The notes beneath the pieces are model-generated. The model saw only the letters and a list, made by a program, of their open reading frames with translations, did no database searches and was not told the origin of the DNA. A stretch of 64,000 nt of DNA. It comes from an uncultured Alphaproteobacteria bacterium. Its GTDB lineage: Bacteria; Pseudomonadota; Alphaproteobacteria; RF32; CAG-239. Below are positions 3,414-64,000 of the stretch, piece by piece. Location of the stretch: positions 18,375 to 82,374 of the forward strand of contig CALXTE010000003.1 of the NCBI GenBank assembly GCA_944391345.1, given 5' to 3'. The position numbers were made by a program, and so were the translations under genes. How positions within the stretch are numbered: position 1 is the stretch's first letter; the number at the start of each line of letters is the position of its first letter.

Positions 3414-5918
3414 ATGACAGAAGATAGTGCAAAAAGCAGATTGACATTATCAGGGAAGTCTACCCTTACCCTTAAAAATGTGGGTGATGGCGCTAAAAGC
3501 CATAATGACGGCAAAAAGGTCGTTCAGGTTGAGGTGCGCAAAAAAAGAATTATTTCTGCCGCAAAAAAAGAAGAACCAAAAGTGCAGATTGATGATGCTA
3601 CCGCTGCTAAGCTTAAACTGATTGCCGAAGCAAAAGAGCATGAGGCAAAACGTCGTCTTGAAGAAGAAGAAAAAGAACGTCAACGCCAGTTGCGTCGCGA
3701 GCAAGAAGAGGCTCTTAAAGCTCAAAAACAAGCTGAAGAACAAGAAAAAGAAAAGGCTCAGAGCCAGCAAAAAGCTGAAAACAAACCGGTCCAACAGCTT
3801 GAGCCTCAGGCTGAGATTAATCCTGAAAAATCGGCTGTGGCGGAAGAACGTGCGGTTGCAAAGGCTAAAGACAAAAAAACTCGTGATTTTGACGATGAAG
3901 AAGATAGTGATGATGAGGGCGCTTATCGTTCTCAAAAAGGCGGAAAATCTTTAAGCAAAGAAGAGGTTTTTGAACAAGAACGCAAGAAAATTATGAAGCG
4001 CAGCTTTGAACCGCAACGCCGCGGCGGCAAAGTTAATCTTCATAATGTTATGGGCGCAATGGATGATGATGACGATGATTATGGCTACGGAGCACCTCGT
4101 CGTCGTTTTAAGAAAAAACAGCCCAAGCCCCAACAAGCGCCGCAACAGCCGGCTGAAAAAATTGTAAAAGAAGTTGTTATTCCTGAAATTATTACTGTTC
4201 AGGAACTGGCTAACCGTATGGCAGAAAAGAGTGCCGAAGTTATTAAAAAACTGATGGCTCTCGGGGTTATGGCAACGATTAATCAGCCGATTGATGCTGA
4301 TACGGCTCAAATTGTGGTTGAAGAATTTGGACACAAGGTTAAACGTGTGGCAGATAGTGATGTGGAGCAAGGTTTGACCGGACCGGAAGACAAGGCTGAA
4401 GATTTGCAGCCCAGAGCACCGGTGGTTACGGTTATGGGACACGTTGACCATGGTAAAACATCTCTGCTTGATGCTTTGCGCGAAACCAATGTGGCCGCCC
4501 GTGAAGCCGGTGGTATTACCCAGCATATCGGTGCTTATCAGATTGAAGTTGCCGGTGGTAAAAAAATTACCTTTATTGATACGCCGGGGCATGAAGCATT
4601 TTCCGAAATGCGTGCTCGCGGTGCAAAAGTTACGGATATCGTTGTGTTAGTTGTGGCTGCTAATGATGGTATTATGCCGCAGACCGTCGAGGCTATTCGT
4701 CATGCTCAGGCCGCCGAGGTTCCGATTGTGGTGGCAATTAATAAAATTGATTTGCCCGGTGCAGATCCGATGAAAGTTAAAACAGCTTTGCTGCAGCACG
4801 GAATTGCCGTTGAAGAAATGGGCGGTGATAGTTTGTGCGCCGAGGTTTCTGCCAAAAAGAGAATTAATATCGACAAGTTGGTCGAAGCAATTTTGCTGCA
4901 GGCTGAAATCCTTGATTTGAAAGCTAATCCAAACCGTTTGGCACAAGGAGCGGTTATTGAAGCTAAAATGGAAAAAGGTCGTGGTTCTGTGGCTACGGTT
5001 TTGGTTCAAAACGGCACGCTTCGTGTCGGCGATATTTGTATTGCCGGAAAAGAATGGGGCCATATTCGCGCTATGTTTAATGAAAACGGCAAAAAAGTTA
5101 CCGAAGCCGGTCCGGCAACACCGGTCGAAATTCTTGGTTTGCAAGGAACACCGGCCGCCGGTGATGATTTTGTTATTGTTAAAGATGAGGCCCAAGCCAA
5201 AGAAGTTACCAATTATCGTATTCGCAAAGAGCGCGATGCAAAGCTGGTTAAGAGCGCAAAATCAGCTATGGAGCAAATGCTTGATAAGATTAAGTCCGGT
5301 GAAGTTAAACATCTTCCGGTTATTATCAAAGCTGATGTTCAAGGCTCTATCGAAGCGATTGAAGGTACCATCAAAAAACTCTCTAATGATGAAGTCAGTG
5401 TTCAGATTTTGCACTCTGCCGTAGGTCCGATTTCGGATTCAGATGTTACCTTGGCAAAGGCTTCAAATGCCTTTATTATCGGATTTAACGTTCGTGCTAT
5501 TCCGCATGCGCGTGATCTTGCTCGTCAAGACGGCGTTGATATTCGTTATTATTCCATTATCTATGATGTGGTTGATGATATTAAGAAAGCGCTGGAAGGA
5601 ATGTTAACCCCCGAACTTAAAGAAAAGATTATCGGTTATGCCGAAATTCGTAATGTCTTTAATATTACCGGTGTTGGTAAAGTCGGTGGTTGTATGGTTA
5701 CCGAAGGTTATGTTAAACGTGGCGCAAAAGTTCGCCTGTTGCGTGATAACGTTGTTATTCACGATGGTGCTCTTGCGCAGCTCAAACGTTTCAAAGAAGA
5801 CGTCCGTGAAGTAAAATCCGGTTATGAATGCGGTATGAGTTTTGAAAACTACAACGACATTCAAGTTGGTGATTTTATTGAGTGTTATGAGGTGGAGGAG
5901 ATAGCTCCAACCCTTTAA
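3414..5918 (+). CDS. infB: Translation initiation factor IF-2
   Basis: 834 aa; GTP-binding motifs [28 protein letters not shown]; K/E/Q-rich N-terminus. Confidence 0.97.
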
Positions 5919-55870: not shown

Positions 55871-56581
55871 TTATTCGTAGCCGTATAACTCTTTGCCATG
55901 CTCTTTCAGCCAGCGTTCGCCTTGTTCATAATCCGGACAAAGCTTGGCAACACACTGCCAAAAGCTGCCCGAATGATTTTGATGTTTGAGGTGGGCTACC
56001 TCGTGTACCATCAAGTAGTTTATGACAAAGTCAGGTGCTAAGGATATGCGCCAGTTGTAGTTCAGATTGTTTAGGCTGGAGCAGCTGCCCCAGCGTGACT
56101 TGGTGTCTTTTATGGTGATGTCGTGGATTTCTTCGCCCAATTTCTTGGCGTATTTTTTTGAACGTTTGTAAAATTCGTCTTTGGCCTTTTTTTTGATAAA
56201 ATCTTTAATGCGGCGATGCATGAATTCTTCTTCGCCCGAAACAAGGAGGTTTCCTCCTTCTATTTTTACGCCCAAGCGTCTTTCCGGAGCATGTTTGATT
56301 TCAAGGGCTTGGCCAAATAAGCTTATTTTTTCGCCATTGAAAAACAGGCGACGTTCGGGGAGCTTTTGCAAGGTGGTTTTTACCCAGTCTTCATGGCTTT
56401 TGATAAACTCAAAGGCTTTTTTTTGACTGCAATAGCGCGGAAGTGTCAGAACGGCAATTCTTTCTTTGCTGTCTATTCTCAAGGTTAGTTTTTTGGCTCG
56501 GGCTGACTTGTTGACCTTTAGCGGAAAGTCAAATTCTTGCTCGAGGTTATAGGTCTTGCCAGTCAATAATGTAATTTTCAT
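55871..56581 (-). CDS. YgjP-like (DUF45, M48-type HExxH) metal-dependent hydrolase
   Basis: Motif MVHEVAHLKH. Confidence 0.8.
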   Translation of the reverse strand: MKITLLTGKTYNLEQEFDFPLKVNKSARAKKLTLRIDSKERIAVLTLPRYCSQKKAFEFIKSHEDWVKTTLQKLPERRLFFNGEKISLFGQALEIKHAPERRLGVKIEGGNLLVSGEEEFMHRRIKDFIKKKAKDEFYKRSKKYAKKLGEEIHDITIKDTKSRWGSCSSLNNLNYNWRISLAPDFVINYLMVHEVAHLKHQNHSGSFWQCVAKLCPDYEQGERWLKEHGKELYGYE

Positions 56582-57059
56582 AGTCTTCTATTCCTGTTTC
56601 CGAAACCGTGTTGCGGTTGCGAATCGACATTCGTGCCTCATGAACGCTATCTGCTCGTCCGGTTAGCAAAGGGTGCCAGTCAGGGAGAGGGTGACCGTTG
56701 TCTAACAGCCAATAGGCGCAGGTCTTGGGTAGCCATCGCGGTTTTTCGCGAATCGCCGCAAGGTCTATGTCTCGGCAGTCCGAAACCTTTTCAAAGCGGT
56801 GTTCGTAGATTTTGCAGAGGCAGTTTTGGCAATCTAAAAAGCGGCAGCGGGTGTTGGTGAACTTGATTTTTCCCTTAATTTCGATTTTGTTCAAGCAGCA
56901 TTTGCCGCAGCCGTCGCATAACAGCTCCCATTCTTCTTTGCTCATGTCTTCGAGTTTTTTCTTTTCCCAAAAGCGGGTGGCAATCAGTTGTTGATTGTTG
57001 AAGCGTGATTGCGGTGAAAAATGCTCTTCTTCAAGCGGGTAGTCTTTGTTGTTTGCCAT
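56547..57059 (-). CDS. YcgN/YkgJ-family Cys-cluster protein (UPF0260), copy 1
   Basis: Motif CxxCGxCC...C. Confidence 0.7.
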   Translation of the reverse strand: MANNKDYPLEEEHFSPQSRFNNQQLIATRFWEKKKLEDMSKEEWELLCDGCGKCCLNKIEIKGKIKFTNTRCRFLDCQNCLCKIYEHRFEKVSDCRDIDLAAIREKPRWLPKTCAYWLLDNGHPLPDWHPLLTGRADSVHEARMSIRNRNTVSETGIEDYENYIIDWQDL

Positions 57060-57439
57060 TATAGGTCATCCCAATCAACAATATGGTCTTCAAGCTCGTT
57101 TTCAGAGACTTCCGTTTCAGATATGCAGCGGCTTTTGATGCTGCTGAAAGGTGCTGGTTCACGCCCTTCGGCCAAGCGGCGATAGGCACAACTATCCGGC
57201 ATCCATCTGATGTTTTTGACATTGTCTTTGGTGAGTTTTAAACATTCGGGAACAAGCTCACAGCGGTTTTCGTAAACAGAGCAGCGTCCATGCTCTTGGT
57301 CATAATATTTACAGACAATGTCGGTATAAAAAATTTCTTCCGTTTCATCGTCTTGGAGTTTTAGCAAGCAGCATTTGCCGCAGTGGGTGCAGATGTTTTC
57401 CCATTCTTCTTCGGTATAGTCTTCAAGCTTTTTGGACAA
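57059..57439 (-). CDS. YcgN/YkgJ-family Cys-cluster protein, copy 2 (tandem paralog)
   Basis: Motif CTHCGKCC; same C-terminal IVDWDDL tail. Confidence 0.7.
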   Translation of the reverse strand: MSKKLEDYTEEEWENICTHCGKCCLLKLQDDETEEIFYTDIVCKYYDQEHGRCSVYENRCELVPECLKLTKDNVKNIRWMPDSCAYRRLAEGREPAPFSSIKSRCISETEVSENELEDHIVDWDDL

Positions 57440-57512
57440 GGTTTTTCTCGCTTTAATCTTTTTGTAAGTAACTTGCGCTATAATAGCATTGTTTTGGTAA
57501 AGGGGAAGAAAA

Positions 57513-57824
57513 ATGTTTAAATGGCTGGCGAATTTAATTATTAAAACACCAATTCAAGGGACTTGCTCTTGTTGTGAAGGCAAAAAAGAACGCCTGCGGC
57601 AGATGCAAAAAGTTATTTTGAATGAAGAAAGTCCGAATCCGGAAATAGATGAAGTTTCTTCTTGCTCGGGCTGTTGTTCTTGTTCTTCGCCGGAAGCCAA
57701 CCCTTATGAAGGGCTAAACCTTTCGTCTTCAATGCAAGGGCGATTTGAATTTAATCAAGAAAGCGGCACGTTTAAACGCACGATTAATTATTCGGCCGAA
57801 CAGAATGATAAGCCCACCGACTAG
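57513..57824 (+). CDS. Small Cys-rich protein (CSCCEG...CSGCCSCSS), unknown
   Basis: Good RBS AGGGGAAG; a 52-aa antisense ORF overlaps its 3' end. Confidence 0.35.
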   Translation: MFKWLANLIIKTPIQGTCSCCEGKKERLRQMQKVILNEESPNPEIDEVSSCSGCCSCSSPEANPYEGLNLSSSMQGRFEFNQESGTFKRTINYSAEQNDKPTD

Positions 57825-57895
57825 CATGTAAAATACACGGAAAAACATCAACCCGAAGATAATCAGTGTATTTTTGATTTCTTTCATTTTTATGC

Positions 57896-59377
57896 TTATC
57901 CTATTTGGTCAGGCAGGTTTTCTTCGCGAACAAGATTGCCAAACTGGGCAAATTCGCCGTTCCAGAAAAGCTGAACCGTGCCGGTTGGGCCGTGACGCTG
58001 TTTTCCGATAATCACTTCACCAAGGTTTTCGGTTTTTCTTAGTCTGGTTTCCCATTCTTCTATACGGTTTTGGAAGTGTTCCGGTGTTTCTCCGGCGTGT
58101 TGTTTGGGCTCTTCGTTTTTAATATAATAGTTTTCACGGAAGACAAACATGACGATATCCGCATCTTGCTCAATAGAGCCGGATTCTCTTAAGTCAGACA
58201 TGACCGGACGTTTGTCGTCGCGTTGCTCAACGCCACGGTTTAATTGTGACAAAGCTATGACAGGAACGTTTAATTCCTTAGCTAAAATCTTTAGACCGCG
58301 AGAAATCTCGGAAAGTTCTTGAACGCGGTTGCCTTCGCTTTTTTTATTGCCACTGCCGCTAATTAATTGGATATAGTCGATGACGATTAAGCCCAGCCCT
58401 TTATTGCGTTTTAGGCGGCGGGCACGGGTGCGAATCGTGTTGATGTTTACTCCGGGGGAATCATCAATGTATAACGGAATGTTTTCCAGCTCGCGGACGC
58501 CGGCGGCGACTCTGATAAACTCGGATTCTTCAAGTTGACCGGTTCTCATCTTGTGGCTGCTGGTTTGGGTGACGGTTGATAAAATACGGCTGGCCAACTG
58601 GTCTGCTGACATTTCCAGCGAGAAAAAAGCGACTCCGCGATTCTTGGGGTCGACTTCGCTTTCTTTGGCGCGGCTCATATATTCGGCAACGTTAAAGGCA
58701 ATATTGGTCGCCAGTGCGGTTTTTCCCATGGCCGGACGACCGGCTAAGATGATTAAGTCGGAATTATTCAATCCGCCGGTTTTGGCGTCGAGCGCATCTA
58801 ATCCGGTTGGTAAGCCTGATAATTTTCCTTCTTTCTGATAAGCTTGCTCTATCATACTTAGCGAACTGGTTAAGGCTTCTCCGAAAGACACGAATCCGCC
58901 GTTGATGTCTCCTTGGTTAGAGAGCTCAAATAAGCGTTTTTCGGCCTGTTCTATTTGGGCATTGGCGTCGTTATCCAAGTCTTCTTCCATGGCCGAATTG
59001 ACGATGTCGTAGCCGGTGGCTATGAGCTCTCTTCTTAGGTATTTGTCATAAATAAATTGGCCGTAATATTCGACATTTGTTAAAGGAGAGGCACTGTCGG
59101 CTAATTTTAACAAGTATTTGTGGCCGCCGACTTCGTTTAAGCTGCCTTCTTGTTCAAAGTAGTTCTTTAGGGTGATGACGTCGGCAATGTGGCCTCTTTG
59201 TATTAGTTTTGAGATGACCTCAAATATCTTGGCGTGGATTGAATCGGCAAAGTGAAAGGGTTTTAAGTATTCGGAGACTTTTTCAAAAGCTTTGTTATTG
59301 ACCAATATTGCACCGAGAAGAGCTTGTTCAGCTTCCAAGTTTTGCGGCAATACAGCGTTATCAGGTTTTGTCTCCAT
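57896..59377 (-). CDS. dnaB: Replicative DNA helicase DnaB
   Basis: 493 aa, Walker A GRPAMGKT. Confidence 0.97.
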   Translation of the reverse strand: METKPDNAVLPQNLEAEQALLGAILVNNKAFEKVSEYLKPFHFADSIHAKIFEVISKLIQRGHIADVITLKNYFEQEGSLNEVGGHKYLLKLADSASPLTNVEYYGQFIYDKYLRRELIATGYDIVNSAMEEDLDNDANAQIEQAEKRLFELSNQGDINGGFVSFGEALTSSLSMIEQAYQKEGKLSGLPTGLDALDAKTGGLNNSDLIILAGRPAMGKTALATNIAFNVAEYMSRAKESEVDPKNRGVAFFSLEMSADQLASRILSTVTQTSSHKMRTGQLEESEFIRVAAGVRELENIPLYIDDSPGVNINTIRTRARRLKRNKGLGLIVIDYIQLISGSGNKKSEGNRVQELSEISRGLKILAKELNVPVIALSQLNRGVEQRDDKRPVMSDLRESGSIEQDADIVMFVFRENYYIKNEEPKQHAGETPEHFQNRIEEWETRLRKTENLGEVIIGKQRHGPTGTVQLFWNGEFAQFGNLVREENLPDQIG

Positions 59378-59475
59378 ATTATTTTGTCCTTAGTTTTTTT
59401 TAGTTCTGTCGTATGATGGCAAAAAAATTTTTTCTTGGCAATGCTTATTTTGGCTTCCCTTTGTGGATTATGGGG

Positions 59476-59507
59476 ATAAAAAATCCCGCTCTCTTGCGAA
59501 AGCGGGG
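59476..59507 (-). terminator. rpmB terminator (minus strand)
   Basis: CCCGCT...AGCGGG hairpin plus T-run on the minus strand. Confidence 0.6.
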
Positions 59508-59535
59508 CAAAACAACCTAACCTAATTGTTTTTGA

Positions 59536-59811
59536 CTAAGCTTTGCTAATTTGCTTTTTGATTTTAACAGCCTCAGCAGAAAGTTTGCTGTTAGAGGTTG
59601 ATTCCAAATAAGCGTCTAAGCCGCCATTGTGCTCAATAGAACGCAAGGTTTTAGAGCAAATTTTTAACTTAAATACTTTGCCAAGTTTTTCACTCAAAAG
59701 TGAAACAACTTGAAGATTCGGCAGAAAACGACGGCGGGTTCTGTTGTTTGCGTGGCTGACATTGTTGCCGCTCATTACGCCGGTGCCGCTGATTTCACAT
59801 TTTTTTGACAT
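59536..59811 (-). CDS. rpmB: 50S ribosomal protein L28
   Basis: MSKKCEISGTGVMSGNNVSHANNRTRRRFLPNL; AAGGA RBS; the longer track start is rejected. Confidence 0.9.
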   Translation of the reverse strand: MSKKCEISGTGVMSGNNVSHANNRTRRRFLPNLQVVSLLSEKLGKVFKLKICSKTLRSIEHNGGLDAYLESTSNSKLSAEAVKIKKQISKA

Positions 59812-59964
59812 GGTTTTTTCCTTAATTTTTCTTAACAAAACAAAAACTCGTTGCCTCTTAATAGACGCAAATTTGCTTAGAGTCAAGTGAAAAATTATTA
59901 TTTCTTGTTGTTTTTGCAAAAAAACAGCGTATTTCCGCTTTGAGAAATACGCTGTTTGACGTTT

Positions 59965-60324
59965 TTAATCCGGTTGCTGACCGTTGATTTCTTTGATTAT
60001 CTCAAACATTTGTTTGGCCGCAGGCGCATTTTTGGTCCCAAGGGTCTTAACGTTGAGGTCATGAAGCGCCGCTTGACTAATCTGATATTTTGCAGCGTAG
60101 TCTCTTAGGTTTTGTCTTATCTCTCGGCAAGTGTTTTGTGCATTTGGTTTGCAGAGGTTGCCGGCTGCTGTGTGACTGTGTCTTTGAAGATAACAACACA
60201 TGCGGTAGAGCAAAACGGCTTCAGAATCGCTGCGCAGCTGATGTTCTTGCGTGTAGCTGTGAATTTTGTAGAAATTTTCGGTAGCAACAAGGCTCTGTTC
60301 GTCTTTTAATAATAATCTTTCCAT
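59965..60324 (-). CDS. Hypothetical protein (119 aa, Cys/His-containing), next to tRNA-Arg
   Basis: ORF only; no RBS. Confidence 0.35.
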   Translation of the reverse strand: MERLLLKDEQSLVATENFYKIHSYTQEHQLRSDSEAVLLYRMCCYLQRHSHTAAGNLCKPNAQNTCREIRQNLRDYAAKYQISQAALHDLNVKTLGTKNAPAAKQMFEIIKEINGQQPD

Positions 60325-60460
60325 AAGCGTATAAGATTTGGTGAATAATAATAGTTAATTCGGGCTGAACATAGCAAAGTTTATTGTGATTGTCCAGTAT
60401 AATTATTGAAATTTTTGCTTGAGTCTTTTTTGTAAATGAATTATTACTGTCTTATTCGAT

Positions 60461-60537
60461 GTATCCGTAGCTCAATTGGATAGAGTGTTGGCCTCCGACG
60501 CCAAAGGTTGTGGGTTCGATCCCCGCCGGATACGCCA
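60461..60537 (+). tRNA. tRNA-Arg (anticodon CCG)
   Basis: Manual cloverleaf: acceptor GTATCCG/CGGATAC, anticodon loop CTCCGAC, T-loop TTCGATC, encoded CCA; promoter-like TTGAGT-17-TATTAC upstream. Confidence 0.9.
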
Positions 60538-60543
60538 GTCTTT

Positions 60544-60576
60544 AGCGCCTTTGATGAAGGCGCTTTGTCTTTTTTA
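60544..60576 (+). terminator. tRNA terminator (AGCGCCTT-TGATG-AAGGCGCT + T-run)
   Basis: Hairpin plus T-run. Confidence 0.65.
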
Positions 60577-61074
60577 GAACAAAGGATTGTAGGCCCATTG
60601 TAGGAGAGCTTGCCTTTGGCGCTTGCGGCAATCAATGTCACCGATATAGCAATTTTTTATGACTTGGGCTTTGTGGCGCTTAAAGGCTTTCCAGCGTTTG
60701 ATTTGTATGATGTCTATTTCAGGAAGTCTACGACCGTAGTAGTAACGGCAATACCACTGAAACCAGCCCCTGACATCCGGGGCGATTATCCAGCCTCTTT
60801 TTTGCCATTCGCTTAAAGGCAGGCGAGATTTTATTTGAAAATAATTTTGCTTGATGTCGGGGCAAGTTGGAGAGAGCCTGGCATTGGTAAACCATTCTTT
60901 GGGAAATTCTTGTTGGCAGTCGTTGAGGTAATGGCCTTCAAAAACCCCCATTTCAAGCATTTGTGGCGGCGTTAATTCCGGCGTGAAATCAGCGGCAAAG
61001 TTTGTTCCTGTTTTTTCGGTCAATTCATAGGTGTAACCCTGCTGCATTTTGTCGTCTACCCGTATTAATGTCAT
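60574..61074 (-). CDS. Hypothetical protein (166 aa, Trp/Tyr/Arg-rich), divergent from the DNA methyltransferase gene; candidate cognate nuclease
   Basis: Strong AAGGAG RBS before the ATG at 61074 (the longer track start at 61122 has none); possible PD...(E/D)xK-like residues APD / EIDIIQIK. Confidence 0.5.
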   Translation of the reverse strand: MTLIRVDDKMQQGYTYELTEKTGTNFAADFTPELTPPQMLEMGVFEGHYLNDCQQEFPKEWFTNARLSPTCPDIKQNYFQIKSRLPLSEWQKRGWIIAPDVRGWFQWYCRYYYGRRLPEIDIIQIKRWKAFKRHKAQVIKNCYIGDIDCRKRQRQALLQWAYNPLF

Positions 61075-61205
61075 GATATTGCTCCTTGAGTTTTTTACAA
61101 TATATTCACTTTGTGAAAACATGGCAAGAGTTTGGGATTATTCTGTTGACGCTCTTGCACTGATGGCTTAAATCGTATAATTTGGTGGTGTAAGAGAGGT
61201 TTTCT

Positions 61206-62006
61206 ATGGAAATGCTGGAAAAATATAAGTTATATAATGGTGATTGTTTTGAGGTGTTGAAAAATTTTCCTCCTGAAACGTTTGATATGATTTTTGCTGA
61301 TCCGCCTTATATGTTGTCCGGTGAGGGAACTGCTTGCAAAAACGGCAAGCTCGTTTCTATTAATAAAGGAAATTGGGATAAAAGCAACGGTATTGAAGAA
61401 GATTTTGAATTTCATAAAAAATGGTTGGCAATGTGTAAAGGTTTGCTTAAGCCGAACGGAACTATTTGGGTTTCGGGGACTTATCATAATATTCTTTCCT
61501 GCGGTTATGCCATGCTTTTGCTGAACTATCATATTCTTAATGATATTGTATGGTTTAAGCCTAATGCCAGTCCAAATATCTCTTGCAAATATTTTACGGC
61601 CAGTCACGAAAGTTTGCTTTGGGCCAGAAAAGATAAAAAAGCTAAGCATTATTTTAACTATAAGGCAATGAAGGAAGGGTATTTCCCTAATGATTTTATT
61701 AAAAAGCCTAATATGCAGATGCGTAGTGTTTGGGCCATTGCCGCAACAAAGCCCAGTGAAAAGCTCCACGGACGGCATCCGACGCAAAAGCCTTTGGAAT
61801 TGTTGGAACGCATTATTACGGCTTCTACCCAAGAAGGTGATTTGATTCTTGATCCGTTTATGGGGAGCGGAACAACCGGTGTGGCCGCCCTTAAGCTGGG
61901 TAGAAAATTTGTCGGGATTGATGCCGAAAAGCAATATGTTGAACTGGCTGAGCGGCGGATTTCAGAGGTCGTGAATAATCCGCAAATTACGGGACTGAAA
62001 TTATAA
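61206..62006 (+). CDS. N6-adenine DNA methyltransferase, beta class (CcrM/M.HinfI-like, GANTC-type), lacking the CcrM C-terminal domain
   Basis: Motifs FADPPY (IV) and DPFMGSGTT (I); 266 aa; AGAGAGG RBS. Confidence 0.9.
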   Translation: MEMLEKYKLYNGDCFEVLKNFPPETFDMIFADPPYMLSGEGTACKNGKLVSINKGNWDKSNGIEEDFEFHKKWLAMCKGLLKPNGTIWVSGTYHNILSCGYAMLLLNYHILNDIVWFKPNASPNISCKYFTASHESLLWARKDKKAKHYFNYKAMKEGYFPNDFIKKPNMQMRSVWAIAATKPSEKLHGRHPTQKPLELLERIITASTQEGDLILDPFMGSGTTGVAALKLGRKFVGIDAEKQYVELAERRISEVVNNPQITGLKL

Positions 62007-62015
62007 CAGGTTGCC

Positions 62016-62702
62016 ATGTATCGTCGTTTATCAGACATGGCCGATGAAAAGTATCGGCTTTTTGCCTTAAAGCTTTTGCCTGAGGTGTGTCAGGCAAAAT
62101 TGCTGGGGGTGCGGTTGCCGAATCTACGTCATTTGGCTAAAGAAATTGCCCGCGGTGATTATCAAAGCTTTTTGGCTCTTGAGGTGCCGCCGTTGTTTGA
62201 AGCGGAAATGCTGTTTGGTTTTGTTATTGGTTATGCGCCGCTGTCCGATGATGAAAAATTTTCTTATCTCGAGCGCTTTTTACCGTTGATTGACAACTGG
62301 TCGGTGTGTGACAGTGTGTGTTGTTCTCTTAAATTTTCGGATAAGAAAAAGCTGTGGCGCTGGCTTGAATCTAAATTAAAAGCTTGTTCTGCGCAAGAGT
62401 ATGTGGTGCGCTTTTGTTTTGTGATGATGTTGAATAATTTTGTTGCGGCAGATTATTTGCAACAAATCTTGACTTTGGTTCGGCAATGCCCTTCATCGGC
62501 TTATTATGTGAAAATGGCGCAGGCTTGGCTTTTGTCGGTTTTGTTTGTGGCTTTTCCCAAAGAGGTGGAGGCTTTTATTTTTGATAAAAAAACCGATGCT
62601 TTACTCCTTTCGCTCACGGTGCAGAAAATTTGTGATTCCCTGCGGGTTGCGCCAAGTGTAAAGCAAAGGTTGCGTTTGTTAAAAAAGAGTTTTGTGTCTT
62701 AG
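62016..62702 (+). CDS. DNA alkylation repair (AlkD-like HEAT-repeat) protein, 10 nt downstream of the methyltransferase
   Basis: Helical repeat composition with DNWSVCD and YVVRF motifs. Confidence 0.5.
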   Translation: MYRRLSDMADEKYRLFALKLLPEVCQAKLLGVRLPNLRHLAKEIARGDYQSFLALEVPPLFEAEMLFGFVIGYAPLSDDEKFSYLERFLPLIDNWSVCDSVCCSLKFSDKKKLWRWLESKLKACSAQEYVVRFCFVMMLNNFVAADYLQQILTLVRQCPSSAYYVKMAQAWLLSVLFVAFPKEVEAFIFDKKTDALLLSLTVQKICDSLRVAPSVKQRLRLLKKSFVS

Positions 62703-64000
62703 TGCCAGGGTAATTCGGTTTGTTGGTGGCAGTATAGATATTTTGTTCCCAGCTGTTTTATGGTATAGCGGTAGCCAATGGCGACAATCAACGAAGCTCC
62801 AATCCAAGCAATCGGGCTGGCTAAACATATTCCTACATATCCAAAGTTTGCTGCTAAAACTATTGCCGCAAAAGAACGAAGTAAAAGCTCGGCAACGCTT
62901 GAAATTACTGGCATGAGCGGTTTCCCCAGTCCTTGTAAGGCGTTGCGGTAGATGAAGATTTGACCTAAGAAAAAGTAAAATAAGACACTAATATTTAAGT
63001 AAGCTTTGGCTTGGCGAATAACTTCTTGATTGTCTTCTTTAACAAAAATTTGAACCATGTTTTCGCCGATTGTGAAAATCATAATCGCCATAAAAATGCT
63101 TAAGCCCAAAGATATCATCGAGCAGTTGAAAACGCCTCTTCTGATGCGGCCGATTAAGCCCGCGCCATAGTTTTGGGCAACGTAGGTGGCCATGGCAATG
63201 CCAAAAGAAACCATCGGCTGTACCGCTAATTGTTCTATTCTGGAGGCCGAGGTAAAAGCAGCAATCGTATTCGGGCCAAAAGAATTGCACACACTTTGTA
63301 AAACAATGCTGCCCAGAGCGATAATTGAAAACTGAATCGACATCGGAATCGCAATTTCCAAGTGCTCTTTGCAAAAAGCCCAGTCAAAGCGCCAGTCTTT
63401 TTTGGTGATTCTTAAAATCGGATATTTTCTGTGAATGTGGATGTAGCACAAAATGACGGAAAGGCTTAGCGCCGTTACCGTGCCTAGTGCCGAACCTCTG
63501 ACGCCAAGGCTGACATATTTTATCAAAACAAAGTTTAAGATGACATTGATAATAGTGGCAAATATCAGAAAATACAGCGGGGTTTTGCTGTCGCCCAAGG
63601 CTCTTAGCAGACTGGCCAAAAGATTGTAATAAACAATCATGATTAATCCCATGGTGATGACTTTCATGAAGTCATAGGCTTGGGCAAATATTTCTTGCGG
63701 AACATTCATCCATTGCAAAAGTCTGGGTAATATGAGCAAGGTTATGCCGCTTATGCATAAGGTATAAGCCCCGCAGATGAGAATCGAGGCAGCGGCCGAG
63801 CGGCGGACATTCTTTATATCATTAGCACCGAATCTTTGTGCTGTTATAACCGTTAAGCCCGAGGTGAAGCCAATGGTCAAACCCATTAATAAAAAGAACA
63901 ACGGGCCGGTCGAGCCAACAGCGGCCAAAGAATTTACACCCAAAAGGCGGCCGACGATAATCGTGTCCGAGATGCTGTATATTTGCTGAAAAACATTGCC
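62699..64000 (-). CDS. MATE family efflux transporter (N-terminus beyond the window end)
   Basis: 12-TM MATE similarity; in-frame extension upstream (...DTIIVGRLLGVNSLAAVG) continues to the window edge. Confidence 0.85.
   Translation of the reverse strand, partial: GNVFQQIYSISDTIIVGRLLGVNSLAAVGSTGPLFFLLMGLTIGFTSGLTVITAQRFGANDIKNVRRSAAASILICGAYTLCISGITLLILPRLLQWMNVPQEIFAQAYDFMKVITMGLIMIVYYNLLASLLRALGDSKTPLYFLIFATIINVILNFVLIKYVSLGVRGSALGTVTALSLSVILCYIHIHRKYPILRITKKDWRFDWAFCKEHLEIAIPMSIQFSIIALGSIVLQSVCNSFGPNTIAAFTSASRIEQLAVQPMVSFGIAMATYVAQNYGAGLIGRIRRGVFNCSMISLGLSIFMAIMIFTIGENMVQIFVKEDNQEVIRQAKAYLNISVLFYFFLGQIFIYRNALQGLGKPLMPVISSVAELLLRSFAAIVLAANFGYVGICLASPIAWIGASLIVAIGYRYTIKQLGTKYLYCHQQTELPWH

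Follow-up and report, generated by a model that had tools for sequence, protein, structure and literature searches.

Introduction

In Streptococcus pneumoniae, the dpnMAB operon of the restriction-modification (R-M) system DpnII encodes a second methyltransferase, DpnA, that methylates GATC in single-stranded DNA (PMC3812788) and protects single-stranded DNA in transit during pneumococcal transformation (PMC3812788). A comparable system, LlaDCHI, is carried by the plasmid pSRQ700 of Lactococcus lactis; its relationship to DpnII is attributed to Moineau et al. (1995) in PMC4190342. GATC methylases also occur as orphans, and those of lactococcal phages protect against DpnII (PMC4190342). Here, we describe a solitary beta-class N6-adenine DNA methyltransferase of 266 amino acids, encoded at positions 61206-62006 (plus strand) of a 64-kb stretch of DNA from an uncultured gut alphaproteobacterium. 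This whole stretch is hereafter called the window. We show that the gene stands within an acquired cassette between two conserved genes, and we argue that the enzyme most likely derives from the second methyltransferase of DpnII-family cassettes.

The window enzyme resembles DpnA (M2.DpnII, also DpnIIB) and the second methyltransferase of LlaDCHI in being a beta-class protein of about 255-270 residues without a C-terminal domain. They have loop signatures in common, and relatives 67-78% identical to the window enzyme hold the middle place of DpnM-like/methylase/DpnII cassettes. In contrast, the window copy has no adjoining DpnM or DpnII gene and is a single gene between alphaproteobacterial chromosomal core genes. 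It also shares with its gut-clade relatives an insert of 8 residues (about residues 158-165, FPNDFIKK in the window) that is absent from the Firmicute enzymes. CcrM (Caulobacter, Sinorhizobium) and M.HinfI have the same beta-class catalytic architecture. However, compared with CcrM, the window methylase is devoid of the C-terminal domain of about 90 residues, is 43-45% identical in sequence, has GATC instead of GANTC as its predicted target, and is not fixed at one locus in its lineage. Finally, M.Phi93DAM of the lactococcal 936-type phages is, like the window enzyme as predicted, a solitary GATC methylase without cognate endonuclease, and its benefit, protection from cleavage of the DpnII type, has been demonstrated (PMC4190342). 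It is encoded by phages, whereas the window gene is chromosomal, flanked by core genes and without a close homologue in a scan of viral contigs.

A Single-Gene Insertion in a Conserved Locus

The methylase gene is bordered by two divergent genes. On one side, a gene for an uncharacterized protein of 166 residues (p166) occupies positions 60574-61074 on the minus strand. On the other side, a gene for an AlkD-like HEAT-like-repeat protein of 228 residues (62016-62702, plus strand) has its start 10 nt beyond the final base of the methylase stop codon. Further out, the neighbors are ordinary: past the AlkD-like gene comes a MATE efflux transporter, and at the opposite end lie DnaB and ribosomal protein L28.

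The window was compared by blastn with the loci of the relatives L006, L008, and L013 (comparison contigs, loci and sequence are designated L001-L263 and P0127). In L006, a close relative with a DnaB 98% identical to that of the window, the gene order is MATE transporter, AlkD-like gene, p166, tRNA-Arg, a gene for a hypothetical protein of 119 residues (hyp119), L28, and DnaB, and the methylase is absent. In the more distant L008 and L013, the AlkD-like gene also directly adjoins p166 with no methylase between them. In DNA sequence, window and L006 can be aligned over 56001-61059 and 62013-64000 of the window; between these two blocks, 953 bp of the window (61060-62012) face an intergenic region of 116 bp in L006. 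Homology resumes 3 nt ahead of the start codon of the AlkD-like gene, and hence the insertion replaced the native upstream region of that gene. The G+C content is 0.36-0.37 in sub-windows within 61000-61749, as compared with about 0.40-0.48 in most flanking ones.

These alignments show that a single-gene cassette of about 0.95 kb was acquired between the divergent ancestral genes p166 and AlkD-like, in the common ancestor of two lineages between which nucleotide identity is today about 90%. Only this segment of the locus varies, the remaining genes being syntenic in relatives. Thus, comparative synteny turns what looked like an R-M island, made up of a methylase, a small protein and a tRNA, into the insertion of one gene.

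Relationship to the DpnA Methyltransferases

The protein matches the Pfam family N6_N4_Mtase (E=6.5e-62). Its DPPY motif (residues 32-35) precedes FMGSGTT (residues 218-224), which is the order of motifs in the beta class and the catalytic domain arrangement that CcrM also has. Its best annotated matches are the middle genes of three-gene cassettes, that of LlaDCHI on L. lactis pSRQ700 (53.4% identity) and that of a staphylococcal plasmid (51.4%); both cassettes are ordered Dam-like methylase, methylase, and endonuclease. Closer relatives have the same neighbors. The gene for P0127, which is 78% identical to the window enzyme, has a D12-class methylase gene (PF02086) on one side and a gene for a DpnII endonuclease (PF04556) on the other. 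Among the metagenomic loci with at least 67% identity, a tblastn search with cassette proteins found a DpnM-like gene directly upstream in all 15, and in 10 of the 15 a DpnII endonuclease gene downstream as well.

The phylogeny agrees with the neighborhoods. In a neighbor-joining tree, the window methylase groups with the solitary copies of L090, L091, and L092, the sister group is a clade of complete cassettes, and CcrM proteins are distant outgroups. Two sequence signatures are common to the cassette methylases and the window enzyme and are not found in CcrM, namely (M/F)LS after DPPY and PN(I/L/M)(S/G)C(K/R)(Y/N)FT after motif VIII. The window enzyme, like the cassette methylases, is also devoid of the 5-residue insert that CcrM carries before HPTQKP. 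As to a phage source, a scan of viral contigs gave only distant matches, with at most 43% identity over nearly the full length. Taken from sequence comparison, the protein is most likely an enzyme of the DpnA (M2.DpnII) type that derives from the second methylase of DpnII-family, GATC-specific cassettes, and we predict GATC to be the site that it methylates.

Isolation from Partner Genes, Selection and Transfer

Searches for partner genes, integrases, and repeats covered the 64-kb window. No homologue of DpnM or DpnII was detected in it by tblastn (E<1e-6). Moreover, DNA similarity to other methylase copies is confined to the coding region, between 61223 and 61960, and since it ends inside the gene no remnants of partner genes survive. 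Both observations indicate that the gene is an orphan offshoot and does not belong to an intact system.

The arrangement p166/methylase/AlkD-like is found in 16 metagenomic contigs. One of them, L263 (metagenome ONAT22-1, SAMEA6814540), shows 100% identity to the window across the compared stretch (about 58956-63900). With respect to the L086 lineage, which is about 90% identical, the ratio of nonsynonymous to synonymous substitutions (dN/dS) of the methylase is 0.04 at a synonymous divergence (dS) of 0.39-0.42; the corresponding values for the AlkD-like gene are a dN/dS of 0.11-0.12 and a dS of 0.40-0.43. Because dN/dS is low at a dS similar to that of the AlkD-like gene, the methylase has been at the site for long and has been kept by selection. 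The gene has thus remained intact under strong purifying selection since its acquisition.

The cassette has also moved. L085 is a mosaic: it matches L006 at about 100% identity from DnaB to tRNA-Arg, and the part beyond, methylase included, matches the window at about 89% (comparison over about 56257-63900 of the window). The breakpoint lies at or near the tRNA-Arg gene. L085 is therefore a recombinant, and on at least one occasion homologous recombination across the conserved flanks has carried the cassette into a different background. Overall, the locus offers a clean natural case of an R-M-derived methylase that lives without its system, is strongly selected and is passed between lineages by homologous recombination. 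At the same time, it is a fairly ordinary orphan methylase of a known sort, in a clade with a strong GATC-avoidance signature.

The solitary state of the gene might have another origin. The enzyme could be a detached part of a complete DpnII-type system encoded elsewhere in the genome, pre-methylating incoming single-stranded DNA as in pneumococcus. The documented role of DpnA as an accessory to DpnM and DpnII would suit this explanation, as would the DpnII cassettes and the strong GATC avoidance of the lineage, and inspection was limited to 64 kb of the genome. However, all the cassette-bearing loci that were examined have these genes side by side or at most about 0.6 kb apart, and neither partner is found in the window. 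In addition, the three nearest relatives (L091, L092, and loci of the same lineage) are solitary too, with at least 900 bp searched on each side, which points to a subclade that inherited the orphan state. We therefore hold a detached component to be unlikely and retain the orphan reading.

Another solitary methylase, 72% identical to that of the window, was observed in L176 (1855-4953). It lies beside SNF2-related, PAPS-reductase/DUF3440, and ParB_N genes, in what looks like a defense-island context.

Proposed Role

The following scheme can be proposed. The methylase would methylate the adenine of GATC in chromosomal DNA and, if it has kept the property of DpnA, it would methylate single-stranded DNA as well. 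It may in this way protect the chromosome, and the DNA exchanged with neighbors, from endonucleases of the DpnII type in circulation among sister lineages. It may also blunt the post-segregational killing caused by DpnII cassettes that invade or depart. As there is no cognate endonuclease nearby, the benefit of the methylase would be immunity.

Taken as a whole, an orphan, DpnA-derived methylase cassette in a conserved locus, presumed to methylate GATC and to have a role in immunity, is the reading that we consider rather likely. Several points nevertheless weigh against it. The partner search covers the 64-kb window and the genes for DpnM and DpnII could lie outside. A consensus scan found no clear sigma-70 promoter upstream of the methylase. 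The DpnA-type and CcrM/HinfI-type enzymes are related members of the beta class, and over the whole length the identity of the window enzyme to the two types differs only moderately (53% vs. 44.5%). GATC avoidance is also seen in relatives that have no methylase at the locus; it thus reflects the history of the lineage and says nothing on the activity of this gene. Finally, the supposed benefit, immunity or a vaccine against R-M cassettes, is drawn from published concepts.

A bolder variant may be considered, although we give it little credit. The methylase would be a single-strand-active "exchange passport" and, separately, p166 and the AlkD-like protein would form a DNA-damage module. If so, the passport would pre-methylate incoming and outgoing single-stranded DNA, in transformation or conjugation, together with the chromosome, in a population of gut Alphaproteobacteria that DpnII cassettes enter and leave. 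Carriers would then trade DNA with DpnII-bearing neighbors and resist takeover by DpnII cassettes, and p166, as part of a DNA-damage module, would act on DNA and represent a new fold.

GATC or GANTC

The preliminary description of the locus had assigned the methylase to the CcrM/HinfI type while noting that it is not the cell-cycle CcrM. The second statement stands, since the C-terminal domain is absent and the score against the CcrM model of NCBIfam is far below the cut-off. The first does not agree with the phylogeny, the neighborhood and the sequence signatures, all of which group the enzyme with the DpnA-like second methylases.

Still, a truncated CcrM/HinfI-type GANTC methylase, either a short replacement of CcrM or a HinfI-like remnant, has to be weighed. 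By sequence, the best match of known structure is CcrM (6pbd), with which the enzyme aligns over residues 16-262 of 366 (E=4e-59), that is over the whole catalytic domain. Likewise, the CcrM equivalog model NF050803 is its top match in NCBIfam. However, the score of 251.3 bits is far under the cut-off of that model, 830, and the C-terminal domain (about 90 residues) is absent, also when the protein is aligned with the CcrM of Sinorhizobium and of Azospirillum. Identity to Sinorhizobium CcrM is 44.5%, lower than that to the methylases of DpnII cassettes, among which the gene nests in the tree, and the loop signatures are of the DpnA type. Furthermore, close relatives have the syntenic locus without the gene, unlike what is expected for a core cell-cycle gene. 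For all these reasons we judge a GANTC enzyme improbable and keep to the predicted GATC target. The nearest solved structure would here mislead on specificity, whereas neighborhood and phylogeny point to GATC.

The composition of the window also bears on this choice, since GATC is markedly depleted and GANTC is not. Expected counts were derived from a maximal-order Markov model for tetramers. GATC is the lowest of the 256 tetramers, with 58 occurrences observed for 200.7 expected (observed/expected ratio, O/E, 0.29). GANTC displays no clear depletion in the window, with an O/E of 0.72-1.0 depending on the background model. Avoidance of GATC extends to the clade, with an O/E of 0.33 over 555 kb of gut/rumen alphaproteobacterial loci (L007-L059) vs. 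1.10 in a marine/free-living set (L060-L084). It suits a clade that has long been exposed to restriction at GATC, in line with the DpnII cassettes present there. CTAG is also low in the window (O/E 0.30).

The p166 Family and the Restriction-Modification Hypothesis

All genes and motifs listed in the preliminary description were recovered at their positions. Among them is p166, whose open reading frame (ORF) spans 60574-61122 and encodes 182 residues. The most likely start is the ATG at 61074, at which homologues also begin, with an AAGGAG ribosome-binding site 7 nt upstream, as had been proposed.

The family is large. Clustering at 90% identity leaves 6814 groups of homologues, with p166 sharing at least 66% identity with each of the best 120, and a word-free search of 1.84 billion representative proteins retrieved 1949 relatives (representatives at 50% identity). 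In a scan of one genome per species, p166 was located at 80 loci, many of them in metagenome-assembled genomes of gut/rumen Alphaproteobacteria. Identities of 61-65% are reached in marine and other free-living Alphaproteobacteria, among them Ruegeria, Hoeflea, Shimia, and Sneathiella, and thus as far as Rhodobacteraceae. The invariant residues of the family include four cysteines and one histidine. No conserved partner gene emerged from neighbor clustering across the 80 loci; the commonest neighbor, an ABC ATPase, is found at 13 of them. The family had no match in Pfam, NCBIfam, PADLOC, or PHROGs, the PDB sequence search gave noise, and no Pfam domain was found in the homologue clusters. Its AlphaFold2 model (mean predicted local distance difference test, pLDDT, 90.7) has an N-terminal beta-hairpin followed by helices. 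Foldseek returned no PDB match below E=2, and a search of BFVD gave a single uncharacterized viral homologue. Fusions to HNH_3, DUF5872, or a STAND-type NTPase occur in rare relatives. Among the by-products of the analysis, this very widespread and highly conserved family, for which neither Pfam has a model nor the PDB a similar structure, intrigues us most.

The divergent methylase and small protein had been likened to the layout of a Type II R-M pair, in which p166 would be a novel small endonuclease. Besides the divergent arrangement, this hypothesis could draw on the failure of p166 to match any known family, on a rare homologue fused to HNH_3, and on two contigs that delete p166 and keep the methylase, a pattern expected of endonuclease loss. 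These contigs (L087 at 5207-5302 and L089 at 1876-1971, same lineage, different samples) carry the same in-frame deletion of 420 bp, corresponding to 60617-61036 of the window. Through it p166 loses 140 of its 166 codons, while the methylase and the flanks are left intact; p166 is thus dispensable in some strains.

However, an adjacent endonuclease that co-varies with the methylase, the mark of a Type II system, was not found. Indeed, the closest relatives L006, L008, and L013 have kept both p166 and the AlkD-like gene although the methylase is missing there, and a methylase homologue lies within 6 kb of p166 at only one of the 80 loci (tblastn with window proteins), leaving 79 without. Restriction enzymes evolve fast and occur patchily, whereas p166 has thousands of homologues and is 61-65% identical across alphaproteobacterial orders. 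The relatives of the methylase pair with DpnII-family endonucleases and never with p166. Moreover, PADLOC, Pfam, and NCBIfam gave no nuclease match for p166 or for the AlkD-like protein, and the predicted fold of p166 matches no nuclease of the PDB. An R-M pair is therefore highly improbable; p166 is a conserved uncharacterized protein and not a restriction endonuclease. The preliminary description had anticipated that a match of p166 to a non-nuclease family would speak against the pair; in fact, p166 matched no nuclease family or fold, nor any known family at all.

The AlkD-Like Protein

The AlkD-like gene passes the Pfam model PF08713 with 26.9 bits for a threshold of 21. Its family profile matches the AlkD of Bacillus cereus in the PDB (E=3e-4), and the AlphaFold2 model (pLDDT 96.4) has AlkD as its top Foldseek match (probability 1.00, TM-score 0.62-0.65). 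The two proteins belong to the same Pfam family and are only about 12-14% identical in sequence. W95, D99, and W171 are invariant in the family and, in the alignment, fall on the active-site WxxxD and W of AlkD (W109, D113, and W187). With Pfam, fold match, and aligned catalytic positions in agreement, the earlier assignment holds, and the protein is probably a HEAT-like-repeat DNA glycosylase, as judged from the model and the alignment.

In contrast, the suggestion that the methylase and the AlkD-like gene form an operon with a joint function loses its ground, since the AlkD-like gene is the ancestral neighbor of p166 and the methylase was inserted directly upstream of its start. The AlkD-like gene predates the methylase at the locus and is hence not functionally tied to it. 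Having lost its native upstream region, it is now probably co-transcribed with the methylase, a by-product of the insertion site that would be an accident and not a functional module.

Surroundings of the Locus

The gene for tRNA-Arg(CCG), detected with ARAGORN at 60461-60537 (plus strand), occupies the same place in relatives. Between it and the 3' end of p166, a consensus scan marks a terminator-like hairpin followed by a T-run (60544-60564, plus strand). On the other side of the tRNA, hyp119 (59965-60324, minus strand) has positional orthologues in relatives and lies outside the methylase insertion. At the opposite end of the locus, the MATE transporter gene (62699-63943, minus strand; Pfam MatE, 2.6e-46) is syntenic in L006, L008, and L013.

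The preliminary description had regarded the segment as a tRNA-associated accessory island, possibly degraded. Its finding that there is neither an integrase nor a direct repeat of the tRNA 3' end was borne out: no integrase is present among the ORFs and Pfam matches of the window, and no second copy of the tRNA-Arg 3' end occurs in it, even with 3 mismatches allowed. No repeats flank the cassette beyond short ones at chance level. The lack of flanking repeats and of a copy of the tRNA 3' end argues against a tRNA-integrated island, and the island view falls because the tRNA and every flanking gene are syntenic in relatives. It had also been said that a locus conserved with the same neighbors throughout the lineage would speak against an accessory element; this conservation is found for the flanking genes and not for the methylase, which is missing in relatives. 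That the entire segment 59965-62702 could be a degraded island integrated at tRNA-Arg is hardly credible, since, even though it adjoins a tRNA and a tRNA-Met beside p166 carries an integrase-bearing prophage in a relative (so that tRNAs near p166 can serve as integration sites), hyp119, tRNA-Arg, p166, AlkD-like, and MATE are syntenic in L006, L008, and L013, the window has no integrase and a single copy of the tRNA 3' end, and the sole variable part, the methylase segment of 0.95 kb, is separated from the tRNA by p166.

Some rearrangements were seen around p166 in relatives. In L002 (10757-20501) and L003 (1423-11167), where p166 is 77% identical, it is followed by tRNA-Met and a Mu-like prophage with an integrase and an RVT_1 reverse transcriptase; the prophage may therefore contain a diversity-generating retroelement. 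The tRNA-Arg(CCG) gene is inverted relative to p166 in L008 (6658-6734) and L013 (6600-7122), and hyp119 is inverted too in L013. In L001/L005 (positions 1-94), an 89%-identical relative whose contig ends about 64 nt upstream, a third, unrelated sequence is found upstream of p166. This third sequence suggests that variation or rearrangement may be concentrated where p166 and the AlkD-like gene meet.

Lastly, hyp119 has no family match in Pfam, NCBIfam, PADLOC, or PHROGs. Its orthologues at the same position are 28-86% identical and hold conserved cysteines. It evolves much faster than its neighbors (43% identity in L001, where DnaB is 98% identical), with a dN/dS of about 0.1. Farther away in the window, tandem paralogues with a CxxCxxCC motif (YcgN-like, PF03692; 170 and 126 residues) are encoded at 56547-57439 (minus strand) and 57513-57824 (plus strand). 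A cysteine-rich ORF of 103 residues adjoins this pair, and all three are kept in close relatives.

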